64,000 nt of DNA, taken from positions 342,869,402 to 342,933,401 of the forward strand of contig NC_085841.1 of NCBI RefSeq assembly GCF_035594765.1. The letters run 5' to 3'. This DNA comes from Anolis carolinensis. Lineage: Eukaryota. The notes below the pieces were generated by a model. It ran no database searches, had not been told where the DNA came from, and was given only the letters and a program-made list of their open reading frames with translations. The translations under genes were made by a program, and so were the position numbers. Of this stretch, positions 17,194 to 64,000 are shown piece by piece. Position 1 is the first letter of the stretch. The number at the start of each line of letters is the position of its first letter.

Positions 17194-19393
17194 TAAAACT
17201 AAGACAAGTCAAACACGCATTCTGGACTTTAAGAGAGCTGACTTCCAAAAAATGAAGGAATTACTGAGCGGCATTCCATGGATGCCAGTATTAAAAAACA
17301 AGGGAGTCAAAGATGGATGGGAGTTTTTCAAAAGTGAAATACTCAAGGCGCAAATGCAAACAGTGCCAACAAAGAAGAAAAATAACACAAGTGCAAAGAA
17401 GCCAGAATGGATGTCCAAAGAACTTCTAACTGAGCTAAGACTCAAAAGAGACATGCACAAGAAGTGGAAAAGGGGAGAAATCACCAAAGAAGAATTCAAA
17501 CGTATAGCCAACTCCTGTAGGGAAAAGGTTCGCAAGGCTAAAACGCAAAATGAGCTCAGGCTTGCCAGGGACATAAAAAACAACAAAAAAGGCTTTTTTG
17601 CTTACATTGGTAGAAAAAGGAAGAACAAGGAGGTGATAGGGCCACTGCAAGGAGAAGATGGGGTGATGGTGACAAGGGACAGGGAAAAGGCAGAACTACT
17701 TAATGCCTTCTTTGCCTTGGTCTTCTCACAAAAAGAAAGCCATCTTCAACCTCAGCAACCTGGAATGGACGAAGGATTGGGGGAAATCCAACCCCAAATA
17801 GGGAAACAAGTTGTCCAGGAACACCTGGCCTCTCTAAACGAATTCAAGTCCCCAGGGCCAGATCAGCTACATCCAAGAGTATTGAAGGAACTAGCGGAAG
17901 TTATTTCAGAACCACTGGCGATCATCTTCGAGAGTTCTTGGAGAACAGGAGAAGTCCTAGCAGATTGGAGGAGGGCGAATGTGGTCCCTAACTTCAAGAA
18001 GGGAAAAAAAGAACGACCCAAACAATTACCGTCTGGTCAGCCTCACATCGATACCAGGCAAGATTCTGGAAAAGATCATTAAGGAAGTGGTCTGCGAACA
18101 CTTAGAAACAAATGCGGTCATTGCTAATAGTCAACATGGATTTACCAAAAACAAGTCATGCCAGACTAATCTGATCTCTTTTTTCGATAGAGTTACGAGT
18201 TGGGTCGATACAGGGAATGCTGTGGATGTAGCGTACCTGGATTTCAGTAAGCCCTTCGACAAAGTCCCCCACGACCTTCTGGCAAACAAACTAGTAAAAT
18301 GTGGGCTAGACAAAGCTACAGTTAGGTGGATCTGTAATTGGCTAAGCGAACAAACCCAAAGGGTGCTCAGCAATACGTCGTCTTCATCATGGAAAGAAGT
18401 GACAAGTGGAGTGCCGCAGGGCTCCGTCCTGGGCCCGGTTCTGTTCAACATCTTTATTAACGACTTAGACGAAGGGTTAGAAGGCACAATCATCAAGTTT
18501 GCAGACGACACCAAACTGGGAGGGATAGCTAACACTCCAGAAGACAGGAGCAGAATTCAAAATGATCTTAACAGACTAGAGAGATGGGCCGAAACTAACA
18601 AAATGAAGTTCAACAGGGACAAATGCAAGATACTTCACTTCGGCAGAAAAAATGGAATGCAAAGATACAGAATGGGGGACGCCTGGCTTGACAGCAGTGT
18701 GTGCGAAAAAGACCTTGGAGTCCTCGTGGACAACAAGTTAAACATGAGCCAACAATGTGATGCAGCAGCTAAAAAAGCCAATGGGATTCTGGCCTGCATC
18801 AATAGGGGAATAGCGTCTAGATCCAGGGAAGTCATGCTACCCCTCTATTCTGCCTTGGTCAGACCACACCTGGAATACTGTGTCCAATTTTGGGCACCAC
18901 AGATGAAGGGAGATGTTGACAAGCTGGAAGGCGTCCAGAGGAGGGCGACTAAAATGATTAAGGGTCTGGAGAACAAGCCCTATGAGGAGTGGCTTAAAGA
19001 GCTGGGCATGTTTAGCCTGCAGAAGAGAAGGCTGAGAGGAGACATGATAGCCATGTACAAATACATGAAGGGAACTCATAGGGAGGAGGGAGCAAGCTTG
19101 TTTTCTGCTGCCCTGCAGACTAGGACACGGAACAATGGCTTCAAACTACAGGAAAGGAGATTCCACCTGAACATCAGGAAGAACTTCCTCACAGTGAGGG
19201 CTGTTCGACAGTGGAACTCTCTCCCCTGGGCTGTGGTGGAGGCTCCTTCTTTGGAGGCTTTTAAGCAGAGACTGGATGGCCATCTGTCGGGGGTGCTTTG
19301 AATGCGATTTCCTGCTTCTTAGCGGGGGGTTGGACTAGATGGCCCATGAGGTCTCTTCCAACTCTACTATTCTATGATTCTATGATTCTATGA
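17194..19393 (+). mobile_element. CR1 LINE, 5'-truncated, young
   Basis: RT ORF, CR1 3'UTR and (ATTCTATG)n tail at about 19369-19392. Confidence 0.97.
17252..19301 (+). pseudogene. CR1 ORF2 (linker plus reverse transcriptase), one frameshift near the A-run at 18004-18010
   Basis: ORFs 17252-18082 and 17979-19301 join: [49 protein letters not shown]; endonuclease domain missing. Confidence 0.95.
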
Positions 19394-28530: not shown

Positions 28531-29673
28531 ATGGCAACCCCCAAGATGAAACCGGAGAGGAAACAGACTACAATAACCCTAACACAAAGAAGGAACTCTA
28601 TAGCAGGCCCACCAGGCTTCTCAGGAGGGTCAGAGGAGATAAATTTGAGGGATGTTCTTGTAGAAATCCAGAAGCTTTCAAATAAGATAGACAAAATTGA
28701 TTCAAACCAAAAAGATGCCCAAGAACAATTACTATCAATAAGAAAGGATATGAAAGAGGAATTTAGCGCCATCAAAAAAGAGGTGAAGGAGGTGAAAGAG
28801 GAAATCAAAGAGGTGAAAAAGGATTGCTTTAAGTTGGAAACAGAACAAAGGGATATCAAAAAAACAATAGACAAACTAGAGGATTGGAATGCAAATCTAG
28901 ATTTAAAACAAGAACTCCTTGAACAACGAGAGATGGAATATCAATTAAGACTAAGAAATGTTAAAGAAGATCCCAAAGAAAATCTTAGGAAGATAATAGT
29001 AGGATTAACAGCAGAAGTGTTGAAAGTATCGACAGAACAAATGCAACAAGATTTGGACAGGGTATATAGAATTAATACCAATTATGCTAGGAGGAACAAA
29101 ACCCCATGAGATATAATAGCCCACTTTAACAGGAAGTCGGTAAGGGATGAAATTCTATTGAGAAATGGACAGAACCCCCTATACTATAATCAGACGAGAG
29201 TAATAGTGATGAAGGAATTTCCGCAGACCACCTTGAATAAAAGACGAAAATATACCTTTCTGACAGAGGAATTGAAAAAAAGACAAATCAGATTCAGATG
29301 GGAACGGGTTGAGGGCCTCTCGTTACCGTTTCATGAGACAAAATACTGGCTAACATCAGAGGCAAAGGCTAAAGACTTTTATGAAAAGTTGTTAAAAGAG
29401 TCAAAGAAGGAGAAAGATGGTGAAGGATGGAAAGAATTGAAAGGAAGTACGAAACAACAAAGTAAAGAAGGAGGAGTAAGTGAACAAGGGAAACCAGGAA
29501 AGAGACAATGATTGAAATCTCCAGAAGACTACAGTCAGACGACTGAAAAGACGGTAGGAGGGCCTATGATACCAATACAGGGAGAGGACGAAAGGGAAGA
29601 CGAAGTAGAGGAGGAAGAGGAGTTGGAAGAGGAGGAGAAGGAGGAAGAAGAAGTGACCCATGATGGATTATAA
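28531..29673 (+). pseudogene. L1 ORF1 (coiled coil, RRM, CTD, acidic tail) with two in-frame TGA stops
   Basis: Heptad-rich K/E region; QLRLRNVKE and DRVYRI..TP*DIIAHF motifs; TGA at 29107 and 29509; the same frame continues to TAA 29671-29673. Confidence 0.88.
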
Positions 29674-32600
29674 AAATCTACATAAACAATGTAAATGGCT
29701 TGAACTCGCCGAACAAGAGGAGGAAAATTTTTAACCAATTGAAAAAAGAGAAATACAGTGTAATCCTACTGCAGGAAACCCATATAGCTGAAAGACATGC
29801 AGCACACTTACATAATGAAGATTTGGGGAAAGTATTTTACTCATTAGCTCAGGAAAAAAGAGAGGGGTTGCAATCTATGTAAATGAAAGAATAAAAGCAG
29901 AATTGGCCTTTAAAGACAAGGAGGGGAGATTTATTGGCATCTTTATTGAAATGGGAAGCAAGAAAATTTTGGTATGTAACATTTACTCCCCAAACGGATC
30001 AAAGACAGAATTCGGAAGAAGATTAAAACAGGAAATTACAAAATCCGAAGCTGAGGAAATGTTGATAGCAGGAGACTACAATGGGATATTAGACCCAACC
30101 AAGGATAGGAGCAGCAAAGGCAAACACACAAAGGAAATGAGACAAGGGAAGCTTCCCATTTCTATGATGTCATTACAAGATGAATTTAACCTTAAAGACA
30201 TATGGAGGGAAAGACATCCGAATGAAAGGGATTATACTTTTTACTCCGACAGGCACCAGTCATGGACGCGAATAGATATGATTTGGGCATCCAACACCCT
30301 GACGACCATGGCCAATACAGTAAGAATTCTTCCTAGATTAGACTCGGACCATTGCCCGATGGAATTACAATTAAAAGAAACCACTAGAAAGTGGACCTGG
30401 AAGCTCAACAATAATCTATTAAACTCGGAAGAGGACATCCAAATAAATAAAAAAATATTAAAAGAATACTTTGCTAACAATGAGAAACAAGAGATATCAC
30501 AACAAATAATATGGGACGCAAGCAAGGCAGTTATGCGAGGCCATCTGATACAACAAAACGCATGGAGAAATAAGAAGAAAAAGGAAGAGGAAAAGAAAGT
30601 TATAGAAGCAATAGGAAAGGCGGAGAAGGAATTGAAAAAAGCCCCTAGAGACATCAAAATAAAAGAAAAATTAGATTTACTACAAAAACAGAGGATATTC
30701 CTGGAAACTGAAGAGACCTCGAAAAAACTAAAGTTCATAAAACAATATAATTTCGAAAATGCGAATAAGCCAGGGAAATGGCTAGCAAGAAAATTAAGAA
30801 GAAAAAGGCAAAAGTTGCACATAACAAAAATAGTGGAAGAAGGGAAGACTTATGCAAATGACACAGAGATTATAAAGCAATTCAACAAATTTTATAAAAA
30901 ATTGTATTCTAAAGAGGTAATAGATAAGGAGGAAGTTCAAAAATACATCAGCAATCGGAAACTTAAAAAAACAACAGAACAACAGAGAGAATTCTTGAAT
31001 AGGGAAATATCGGAAAAGGAGATCGACCAAGCAATCATGAAATTAGACAATTCCAAAGCTCCGGGGCCAGATGGATACACGGCGGTGTATTACAAAAAGT
31101 TAAAAGAGGAACTGATACCTAACCTTAAAAAAATTATGAATGAAGCTCTAAACAATCAAATAATACCTGAATCCTGGAAGGAAGCCAATATAGTTATGAT
31201 TGCTAAGGAAGACAAAGACCCAAATAACGTAAGAAACTATAGACCAATTTCTCTATTAAATGTTGACTATAAAATATATGCAAATATCTTAGCAGAAAGA
31301 TTGAAAATGTTTTTACAAGAGTGGATTCAAAAAGACCAAACCGGTTTCCTGCCACAGAGAGACATTAAGGACAATTTAAGAACAATACTTGACATAATAG
31401 AATACTATGAATCAAACAATCAGAAAGAATTGGCGCTGATATTTCTGGACGCGGAAAAAGCCTTCGATAACTTGAATTGGGACTGTATTGAAATTTTATT
31501 AAGAGAATTGGATATGGGCTTTTACTTTATCAATGGAATTAAATCAATCTATAAAGAACAAACGGCAAAAATTTCAGTAAATGGGCAGGAAGGAAGCAAA
31601 ATCAAGATTGGCAAAGGTACAAGACAAGGATGCCCTTTATCGCCACTACTCTTCATTATGGTCCTGGAACTCCTGTTAAATTCTATAAGAGAGGATGAAA
31701 ACTTGCAAGGCACAAAGATCAGAAAAGATATATACAAGATAAGGGCATTTGCTGATGATGTGGTATGCATCGTAGAAAATCCAAATTTAAACATCAACGA
31801 TTGGCTGCAAAAAATAGAAACCTATAGTCGAATAGCGGGCTTTAAAATTAACAAAGAAAAAACAAAAATTTTAGTAAAAAATATGTCTAAAACAAAGCAA
31901 CAAAAATTACAGGAAGTATCAGGACTAGAGATCACAAAGAAAATAAAATAGGAATCTACCTCACGGCTAAAAATGCACAACTTTTGAAAAACAATTATGA
32001 AGAGACCTGGAAGAATATACAAAAAGACTTGAAAAAATGGTCTTTCTTAAACTTATCATTGCTAGGAAGAATTGCAACAATTAAAATGAACGTCCTTCCA
32101 AAACTGCTTTATTTATTTAGAACAATCCCAATAATTAGAAATAATAAAATATTTAAAAATTGGAGCACTGAACTATCCAAATTTATTTGGCAGGGGAAAA
32201 AACCAAGGGAAAAAATGCTAAATTTGACGGACGAAAAGAAAAGAGGAGGTCTAGGTCTTCCGGATCTACAACTATACTATGAGGCAAGTGCATTAGGTTG
32301 GGTTAAAGACTGGGCAACTTTAAAAGACAAATCGATGCTAAATTTGGAAGGATTCGATCTGAGAACAGGGTGGCATGCCTACATGTGGTATGATAAGAAG
32401 AAATTGGAAAAAAAATTAGGAAACCATTTTATTAGAGCAGCCCTTATTAAAGTATGGGAATAATACAAACGAAATTTCTACACAAGAACACCAAGATGGA
32501 TATCACCCCTGGAGGCATGCCACAGAAGACAAACTCCAAGAAGGAATTGGCTAACTTATAATGACATAATTAGAAAAAGAGAGGGGAAGTGGACACTTAA

Positions 32601-33411
32601 ATCACAGGAAGAAATGAAGAAAATAGACCAAGAGATTTCGTGGTTCCAATACTTTCAAATAAAGGAGTACTTCAATCAGGATAACAGAATTGGCTTTGAG
32701 GAAAATGAAACAACATGGGATAGAATTATGAAATCGGATAAGAAAATAATATCGAAATTATACAATAAACTTCTGGAATGGTCAACGTTGACGGAAGGAG
32801 TAAAAGACTGTATGAGCATGTGGGCAAAGGATGTAGGCCATACGATAATGTTAGAAGACTGGGAAAAAATGTGGACAATTAAAAATAAATGGACATATGC
32901 ACAGGATTTAAAGGAAAATTGGACCAAGATGATGTACAGGTGGTACATTACACCCCAAAAATTGGCAAAAATGTACCCAAAACTGAGCGACAAATGTTGG
33001 AAATGTGAAGAAAAAACGGGGACATTTATACATATGTGGTGGAACTGCAGAACGGCTAAGAAATATTGGTCAGAGATTCATGAAGAGATACAGAAAATCT
33101 TAAAGGTAAAAATTTGATTGAAGCCAGAATACTATTTGCTGGGAATAATTGATGATAAAATGGTAGAAAACAAAGAGAAACTCTTTCATTTTCTATCAAC
33201 GGCGGCCAGGATTAATTATGCCAAAGTGTGGAGATCAAAGGAGAAACCAACAATAGATCAATGGATTTTGAAGATAATGGACATTATGAATATGGATGTA
33301 CTGACCCAAACATTAAAACACTTCCAAGGAGTGAAATGCAAAAAAATAGACTGGTCACCATTAAAGAAATATATGTTGCAGAGGAAAATGAAAATGATAA
33401 TAACGATCTAG
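29660..33411 (+). pseudogene. L1 ORF2 (APE endonuclease, RT, CCHC) with frameshifts near 29675, 29858 and 31950 and stops at 32461 and 33115
   Basis: NVNG, LQETH, IYSPN, GDYN, RIDMIW, SDH; PGPDG, YRPISLLN, LDAEKAFD, GTRQGCPLSP, FADD; CWKC..HMWWNC. Confidence 0.95.
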
Positions 33412-40746: not shown

Positions 40747-40801
<55 letters not shown>

Positions 40802-40805
40802 TAAT
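40747..40805. repeat. (AAT)n, 5' flank of the R4/Dong insertion
   Basis: about 19 units. Confidence 0.93.
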
Positions 40806-41248
40806 GTAAAGAACTGGTGGAATCACAAACCTGCAAAAGTAATGGAAAATGAACACGCAAAGATACTGTGGGACTTCCGAATCCAGACTGACAAAATTCT
40901 GGAACACAACACACCAGACCTCACAGTTGTGGAAAAGAAAAAGGTTTGGATCATTGATGTCGCCATCCCAGGTGACACTCGCATTGACGAAAAACAACAG
41001 GAAAAACTAAGCTGCTATCAGGACTTCAAGACTGAACTTCAAAGACTCTGGCAGAAACCAGTACAGGTGGTCCCGGTGGTGATCGGCACACTGGGTGCCA
41101 TGCCAAAAGATCTCAGCCGGCATTTGGAAACAATAGACATTGACAAAATTATGATCTGCCAACTGCAAAAGGCCACCCTACTGGGATCTGTGCGCATCAT
41201 CTGAAAATACATCACACAGTCCTAAATGCTTGGGAAGTGTTCAACTTG

Positions 41249-42108
41249 TGTGATGTCTCATGGGCCTTGTAGTCCCGTTCCTAGTACTATGGTGGCAGAC
41301 GAAGAGGAAAACATGGGATTTACACCGTTTCAGCCAGAAACGGAGCCCCTGCACCTGCAGGATGTTTGCCCTCAAGAATCCAGCCAAACAAGCCTTGGGC
41401 AGAATTCTCCCCCGTTTTCTCGAAAAGACAATTATAATAGAGATAGAGGGGCGAGGGAGGCTAATCGCCGCTCTCTCAGAATCGCTGCCAGACAATTAGC
41501 TGATTAAGCCTGTTTCCCTTGGGAAATTCTAAGGAGTCATGCATCTGGACACAGTTTGGGTTTCACTTCTTGTTCTCCAGGGAAAGTGTTCCTTGGCGGG
41601 AAAACAAGATCCTATATAGGTGTTTTACCGCAAGGAAATCCTTGCGGAGTCAATTCGTCAGCTTCAGGAGTGAGATCGTGTGTGGACTACGCAACTCCAG
41701 TTCCTTGTTCCAGGACCAAGTTCCAAGCCTGCCTTGTTCCCCGGACCTCGCCACGGACCTTGTTCTTGCTTCTTGCTTCTTGTTGCCTCGTATCAAGTCT
41801 TGTATGCCAAGAATCTAGTTTGTTTTCCAGCCTTGTTGTCAGCTCCATTGGACTAAAGGACCTTGTCATTTCCCCACACTTTGCTTGGCAAAGTGTGTGT
41901 TTCGGTTATTGGATTATAACTTTGGACTCTAATATCTCATATTGGACATTGTTTTCCTGGACTATATTTGACCTTTCCTGAGAGGTCTACTTCTGAACTA
42001 TATTCTTCACTTGTTTTTATTGACTTTATATATTCCTTTAATAAAGATATTAGATAGATTCTGGTCTCTGCGCATGGTTATTGGTGCTCTGCAGCCTGGG
42101 TCCTGACA
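41249..42108 (+). mobile_element. Solo LTR, Ty3/Gypsy-type (Tf1/sushi-like), 860 bp
   Basis: TGT...ACA ends, 5-bp TSD ACTTG (41244-41248 and 42109-42113), TATATA at 41613, AATAAA at 42040; homologous to 62918-63856. Confidence 0.93.
41253..41507 (+). CDS. Putative LTR U3-encoded small protein, 84 aa
   Basis: ATG at LTR base 5; intact; homologous ORFs at 62922 and 62203; many synonymous differences in conserved motifs. Confidence 0.65.
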   Translation: MSHGPCSPVPSTMVADEEENMGFTPFQPETEPLHLQDVCPQESSQTSLGQNSPPFSRKDNYNRDRGAREANRRSLRIAARQLAD

Positions 42109-42178
42109 ACTTGTGATTTTGTGATACGAAATCCAACATATCTATCTTGTTTGCTGTGTCATACAATGTCATTGTGTC

Positions 42179-63858: not shown

Positions 63859-63868
63859 TTGACTCCGC
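63859..63868 (+). promoter_or_regulatory. Self-priming primer-binding site TTGACTCCGC
   Basis: 2 nt after the LTR end; exact reverse complement of GCGGAGTCAA at 63334-63343. Confidence 0.75.
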
Positions 63869-63898: not shown

Positions 63899-64000
63899 AT
63901 GTCTACCGGAACCGTGCCGGGTGGCCAGCCACTTAGCTACACCATCGACAAGGACGAAGTGGACCGCATCCGTGATAAGCTCAATGCGCAGGAGGGAGAA
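63899..64000 (+). CDS. Probable gag N-terminus (partial): MSTGTVPGGQPLSYTIDKDEVDRIRDKLNAQEGE
   Basis: First ATG after the LTR and PBS, open to the window end; assigned by position only. Confidence 0.6.
   Translation, partial: MSTGTVPGGQPLSYTIDKDEVDRIRDKLNAQEGE

Follow-up and report, generated by a model that had tools for sequence, protein, structure and literature searches.

Long terminal repeats (LTRs) of Gypsy-type elements in Anolis carolinensis carry a small open frame in U3, which raises the question of what protein, if any, it encodes. The window analysed here, 64,000 nucleotides of contig NC_085841.1, holds three such LTRs (Table 1). The original prediction offered two readings of the frame: an accessory microprotein, or the C-terminal end of a longer ORF that extends into the 3' LTR. 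Its description of the frames holds. Both complete copies have an ATG at LTR base 5 and stay open, for 84 residues at 41253-41507 and 91 residues at 62922-63197, and the length difference is an in-frame 21-nt duplication, which proved imperfect. The codons for RRSLRIAA differ between them at six of eight positions and those for SPPFSR at three of six, all silently. The third copy (62199) retains DEDMGF and SPPFDRR; an inverted solo LTR interrupts it at 62422. Past the window, beyond the nested insertion, its frame resumes and ends in LEKANLRRSARLAARETSD and a stop. Because the stop precedes the TATA box (41611-41619) and the self-primer (41644), the frame lies wholly in U3; its position 5' of the TATA box was thus described correctly.

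Table 1. Features of the U3-frame LTRs in the window (positions in the window)
Position	Strand	Feature	Remark
41249..42108	+	Solo LTR, family A (TGTGATG...TGACA)	5-bp target duplication ACTTG
41253..41507	+	Orphan U3 copy of the Pol/integrase C-terminal 84 codons, in solo LTR	
41406..41423	+	SPPFSR conserved block, start of the tail's basic end	
41466..41489	+	RRSLRIAA, HMGN-like motif, predicted arginine anchor	Motif as defined in the text seen of PMC12487698, PMC13347269
41611..41619	+	TATA-like box, 3' of stop codon	
41644..41653	+	Self-primer GCGGAGTCAA, putative 5' end of element RNA	Complementary to PBS
62199..62422	+	Family B LTR, 5' part; tail frame from 62203	Broken by nested insertion
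62423..62917	-	R-U5 part of inverted family A-like solo LTR in the B LTR	Itself split at TATA box
62918..63856	+	5' LTR of full-length family C element	Element continues past window as L034
62922..63197	+	U3 copy of Pol C-terminal 91 codons	
63156..63179	+	RRSLRIAA motif	Codons unlike those of family A
63859..63868	+	Primer-binding site (PBS) TTGACTCCGC	Complement of LTR self-primer at 63334
63899..64000	+	gag start	

The LTRs sit among other repeats. From 62199 to the window's end and on through L034 6466-6903, related elements lie inside one another: a family B LTR holds the inverted A-like solo LTR (target duplication CTTGG), whose TATA box holds the full family C element (target duplication TATAT). 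A-, B- and C-type insertions into one another recur at L047, L068, L074, L125, L153, L168 and L169. Nesting was seen in 8 of 105 upstream flanks after removal of three missed 3' LTRs, a count biased by the choice of loci; these insertions may reflect heterochromatin targeting. Another repeat (40800-42150) holds the solo LTR at 41249 in its 3' end; a second, inverted copy of that repeat lies near 57496-57593. This repeat has no Pfam match, and we take it to resemble the endonuclease region of a non-LTR retrotransposon. Two non-LTR retrotransposons with reverse transcriptase domains, presumably CR1-like and L1-like, lie at 17252-19301 and 28531-33411. Elsewhere in the genome, G000:C3:149048855-149081370 is a tandem array of seven family A pol ends at about 5.3 kb spacing.

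Full-length copies in the same genome identify the frame. In these it is the end of a pol ORF of about 1,250 residues that encodes protease, reverse transcriptase (RT), RNase H, integrase and chromodomain, reads through the chromodomain and the polypurine tract (PPT), and then runs 250-290 nt into the 3' LTR, giving a tail of 84-96 residues. A genome search with the 84-residue product found 3' LTR copies with open frames of 1,179-1,367 codons, of which more than 1,100 precede the LTR. One copy (L031) has a 1,244-residue ORF with Pfam domains in the order protease, RT, RNase H, integrase, SH3 and chromodomain, followed by the tail; its polypurine tract encodes GLEEGDS, and the LTR-encoded "ORF" is entered at residue 1161. 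The window's own family C element, whose two LTRs differ by 1 mismatch in 940 nt, has a 1122-residue ORF running into its 3' LTR, with one stop in the protease region of pol, and the 91-codon frame at 62922-63197 recurs there as an identical copy fused to pol. In families C and D, with about 21,000 candidates each, the 150 best include recurrent frames of 1,256 and 1,261 codons.

Families A, C and D supplied 47 unique LTRs preceded by a PPT; in 45 of these the frame continues that of the chromodomain, and two fail the test used. Family B consists almost entirely of solo LTRs, and its 150 best matches include no intact internal region. A corrected 3' LTR pattern for this family gave four matches, one of them a true 3' LTR, and a pattern covering subfamily B3 alone gave none. 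The sole family B 3' LTR found is also in frame with its chromodomain. We conclude, with a probability of about 0.95, that a self-priming Gypsy retrotransposon with a chromodomain encodes the C-terminal tail of its Pol/integrase in the U3 frame. Of the two readings offered, the longer ORF entering the 3' LTR therefore stands and is pol/integrase, as the suggested look upstream of the LTR revealed; the accessory microprotein falls with the continuity of the frame, which also rules out an independent U3 gene. The copies in 5' and solo LTRs, which lie 5' of the promoter, would be by-products of LTR duplication at reverse transcription.

Two UniRef entries from Anolis carolinensis (A0A803SRK7 and A0A803T7I9, "Gypsy retrotransposon integrase-like protein 1") span the whole tail, which is therefore already in automatic annotation, unremarked. 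In four other automatic Anolis gene models (P0124, P0125, P0129 and P0187), tail or pol is fused to exons of the host or of other repeats; these are likely annotation artefacts, possibly exonisation. Contigs from 4 of the 24 listed runs, which we guessed to be RNA, contained two joints into the LTR start, in one run only and with ends other than GT-AG. We read both as nested insertions, uninformative on splicing.

Domain order, the self-priming PBS and homologue lists, rather than a tree, point to a Tf1/sushi-type chromovirus. The chromodomain (PF00385, E 2e-09) spans residues 1085-1133, with F, W and F at the cage positions as read by eye. The PBS at 63859 is the exact 10-nt complement of the sequence at 63334, about 30 nt 3' of the TATA box, which matches self-priming as defined in the part seen of bioRxiv 2022.12.06.519325, where the PBS is complementary to the RNA 5' end. 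Like Tf1/sushi chromoviruses (Metaviridae, Ty3/Gypsy), the element has a Gag-pol with protease, RT, RNase H, integrase and chromodomain, self-priming, TG..CA termini and a 5-bp target duplication. Most homologues examined end soon past the chromodomain, whereas this Pol adds 84-96 U3-encoded residues and an HMGN-like motif.

Coding overlap with U3 has precedents. Retroviruses encode U3 accessory proteins, nef and MMTV sag, which are separate proteins with their own mRNAs. The analogy originally drawn to them does not carry over, as the Anolis frame overlaps U3 likewise but is fused to Pol, with no separating stop upstream. Another likeness is to plant chromoviruses of CRM group A and some Reina elements, in which the Pol ORF enters the 3' LTR and, in CRM, an LTR-encoded CR motif is the proposed chromatin-targeting domain (PMC3605345 and PMC3059260, text seen in part). 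In CRM the CR motif replaces the chromodomain, whereas the Anolis element has a chromodomain before the polypurine tract and an unrelated motif in U3. With its chromodomain and self-priming PBS, it is not a member of CRM group A, which has the CR motif in place of the chromodomain and is primed by tRNA-Met.

The codon-level selection signature that had been noticed is real, and it marks an HMGN-like motif that had gone unnamed. Purifying selection on the tail is shown by two approaches. Lineages were compared pairwise with natural copies by the Nei-Gojobori method, and all seven pairs gave tail dN/dS of 0.11-0.53: 0.35 (A-C), 0.53 (A-D), 0.36 (C-D), 0.29, 0.27, 0.20 and 0.11. The pol domains gave 0-0.20, bar one near-identical protease pair at 0.57, and the two pairs whose members differ by an Ala/Leu switch within family A gave 0.38 and 0.62 for the motif window. 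For variation within families, 232 tail matches in the fetched loci were reduced to 189 unique ones and, once PPT-preceded LTRs were removed, to 150 copies, among which at least three 3' LTRs escaped removal. Variants found in at least three copies were counted as shared. In the tail frame, shared variants had pN/pS of 0.24 in family A (53 copies) and 0.34 in family B (74 copies), and private variants had 0.44 and 0.73 (Fisher p 0.11 and 0.0007 against shared). Shared variants gave 0.92-1.91 in the other two forward frames and 0.54 and 0.43 in the reverse frame with common third positions, as expected of a shadow; the downstream non-coding LTR gave 0.64-0.88.

The signal is thus frame-specific, beyond chance. 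The within-family pN/pS values are biased low because most copies were retrieved by tail similarity, which works against stops, indels and amino-acid changes; the same bias affects the contrast in shared indels (0-1 in the tail vs 20-30 downstream). Codon switches between lineages are unexplained by this retrieval. Several family B subfamilies show selection on the tail despite the predominance of solo LTRs. Two elements of families C and D (L142 and L157) have chromodomain and linker proteins that are 100% identical and U3 tails that are 53% identical, with higher dS; this contrast suggests an exchange of LTR and tail between families by recombination.

The tail has two parts. Its first 51-63 residues contain 0-1 K/R, 8-11 D/E and 25-29% P+S, and a basic stretch of 33 residues (7-9 K/R) ends it. 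It has two conserved blocks, SPPF/SPVF..R and a terminal octapeptide, which occurs in natural copies as RRSARIAA, RRSLRIAA and RRSARLAA with varied codons. The octapeptide is the most conserved block: across six lineage representatives, 6 of its 8 columns are invariant vs 11 of 76 elsewhere (Fisher p 0.0007, post hoc). A full-length frame was present in 137 of the 150 copies, and the other 13 were dropped. The three arginines are kept in 129, 133 and 133 of these tails and the serine in 136, with five Arg codons in use that cover both Arg boxes and with both Ser codon boxes; lysine at any of the three Arg positions is rare (3 among 137). Leucine at position 4 is present in families A and C, with differing codons. 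A shuffled tail yields RRSxR[LI] by chance in 1-4 of 10,000 cases. An in-frame ATG at LTR base 5 is found in all four families; its presence in 150 of 150 copies is partly a product of the LTR-start filter and was set aside as evidence.

The octapeptide resembles the nucleosome-binding core of HMGN proteins. That core is RRSARLSA in vertebrate HMGN, RRSSRLTS in Dsup and RRSARIAT in yeast Dot5 (available text of PMC12487698, PMC12480509 and PMC13347269), and Dot5 is identical to the tail form RRSARIAA at seven of eight positions. According to the parts seen of PMC12487698, RRSAR of HMGN2 and RRSSR of Dsup occupy the acidic patch of H2A-H2B in cryo-EM, anchored by their last arginine, and phosphorylation of the serine would be expected to prevent this binding; nucleosome binding by Dot5 depends on its three arginines and is lost when they are mutated (PMC13347269, likewise in part). 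The tail motif has the three arginines and serine of the R-R-S-x-R core and shares with HMGN, Dsup and Dot5 the sequence R-R-S-x-R-hydrophobic in a charged, low-complexity context. It differs in lying on a retrotransposon integrase, in having leucine at position 4 in the window's copies, and in that its binding is only predicted; HMGN also has serine at position 7, where the Anolis tails have alanine. The tails do not belong to the family of HMGN proteins, as the likeness to HMG14_17 stops at the octapeptide. Capture of the motif from host HMGN DNA found no support in the one host HMGN exon found, whose codons are different.

None of six tails matched any Pfam family at E 10, HMG14_17 included, and PDB sequences and the ESM Atlas gave no match. 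Profile searches returned five proteins (the three looked up are from Anolis and two are repetitive partial matches) and seven proteins (all Anolis). RRSxR occurs within 200 residues past the chromodomain in 5 of 102 chromodomain-bearing homologues, and the motif is therefore no general chromovirus feature. Gypsy proteins of Podarcis muralis have a chromodomain, a longer acidic spacer (0 K/R, 18 D/E) and an RRSARLKA end, and their similarity to the Anolis tail is confined to the terminal motif (hhalign probability 6.6%). From the GRGDGV-M junction we infer that the Podarcis tail, too, would lie within the LTR.

We slightly favour the view that the terminal RRSxR motif is an HMGN-type arginine anchor that tethers integrase to the H2A-H2B acidic patch of the nucleosome. 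Protease processing would leave the tail attached to integrase, with its acidic Pro/Ser-rich part as a flexible spacer. The chromodomain, a methyl-lysine reader, could then bind methylated histone tails while RRSxR binds the acidic patch, and the two would hold the integration complex on chromatin as a two-point tether with its points about 100 residues apart. This tether is proposed from the nucleosome binding of the HMGN2, Dsup and Dot5 motifs and from the arginine anchor of foamy virus Gag. Loss of that Gag anchor redistributes integration sites, and foamy Gag CBS, MLV p12, LANA and IE1 likewise use short arginine anchors to keep a mobile genome or an integration complex on nucleosomes, but these lie on Gag or DNA-virus proteins and, as far as the text seen of PMC9040877 describes them, none is of the RRSxR type. 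A complex predicted for the last 35 residues of the tail with H2A and H2B of this genome scored 0.02, in a run without controls, and was given no weight in either direction.

The conserved end could be attributed to other functions. Instead of anchoring to the acidic patch, the basic end might act as a nuclear localization signal (NLS), bind DNA or RNA, or be a switch under kinase control; this is a rather unlikely alternative that keeps some weight. SP and RRxS/RRSxR resemble kinase sites, and a basic motif could also serve as an NLS or nucleic-acid patch. The charge of the last 33 residues would suit this, and NLS-like basic segments are noted for plant chromovirus integrases in the part seen of PMC3605345. 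A generic basic patch, however, needs neither the invariant serine, nor the hydrophobic I/L, nor the two alanines, and would not account for the rarity of lysine for arginine or for the RRSARL spelling that recurs in the otherwise unlike Podarcis tail.

It is very improbable that the tail is mostly tolerated read-through, conserved through constraint on LTR DNA and an open frame to the stop. Its dN/dS is several-fold above that of the pol domains, tails are 52-63% identical between families whose pol is 92-100% identical, and many homologues stop shortly past the chromodomain; yet in the motif silent sites are near saturation while residues are fixed. Constraint on LTR DNA is largely refuted for the two motif blocks, because it would preserve codons, not residues. 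Scarcely more probable is that the tail frame is additionally made alone as a microprotein from the LTR ATG, through subgenomic or read-through RNA and from solo LTRs too. That ATG is shared by four families, candidate LTR copies number in the thousands, and some automatic gene models join the tail to host exons (P0124, P0125, P0187), but the frame lies 5' of the promoter and the private variants of family B, almost all in solo LTRs, are near neutral. The LTR-start ATG also fits the published Sushi integrase-recognition end, TGTYANR (Table 3 of PMC3601003, seen in part), and a translational role for it is therefore unnecessary.

Elements of this type are known, as is pol-in-LTR in plants; the HMGN-like motif on an integrase is the apparently new part. 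The literature searched, which was short on subscription journals, yielded no report of such a motif in any retrotransposon or of pol-in-LTR for lizard elements, and the LTR overlap may already be noted in Repbase-type descriptions. For annotation, selected open frames in these solo LTRs are to be treated as Pol tails, not genes. HMGN-like motifs outside HMGN have known tests in Dsup and Dot5 alone (PMC12487698, PMC13347269 and PMC12480509), and further proteins with such motifs have been proposed to exist (PMC12487698; all as far as the text seen goes). Few studies address how chromoviruses of vertebrates select their target chromatin and stay on it. With the anchor predicted here, the U3 motif has a counterpart in the targeting motif that plant CRM elements encode in their LTRs, and a selected motif on the integrase of a very active retrotransposon is a short peptide, directly testable. 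At about even odds, lizard chromoviruses would have a two-reader integrase that joins a chromodomain to an LTR-encoded HMGN-type anchor. This motif, a first for retrotransposons, would have been retained or evolved anew in Anolis and Podarcis elements, and the fast-evolving U3 would act as a swappable targeting tail.
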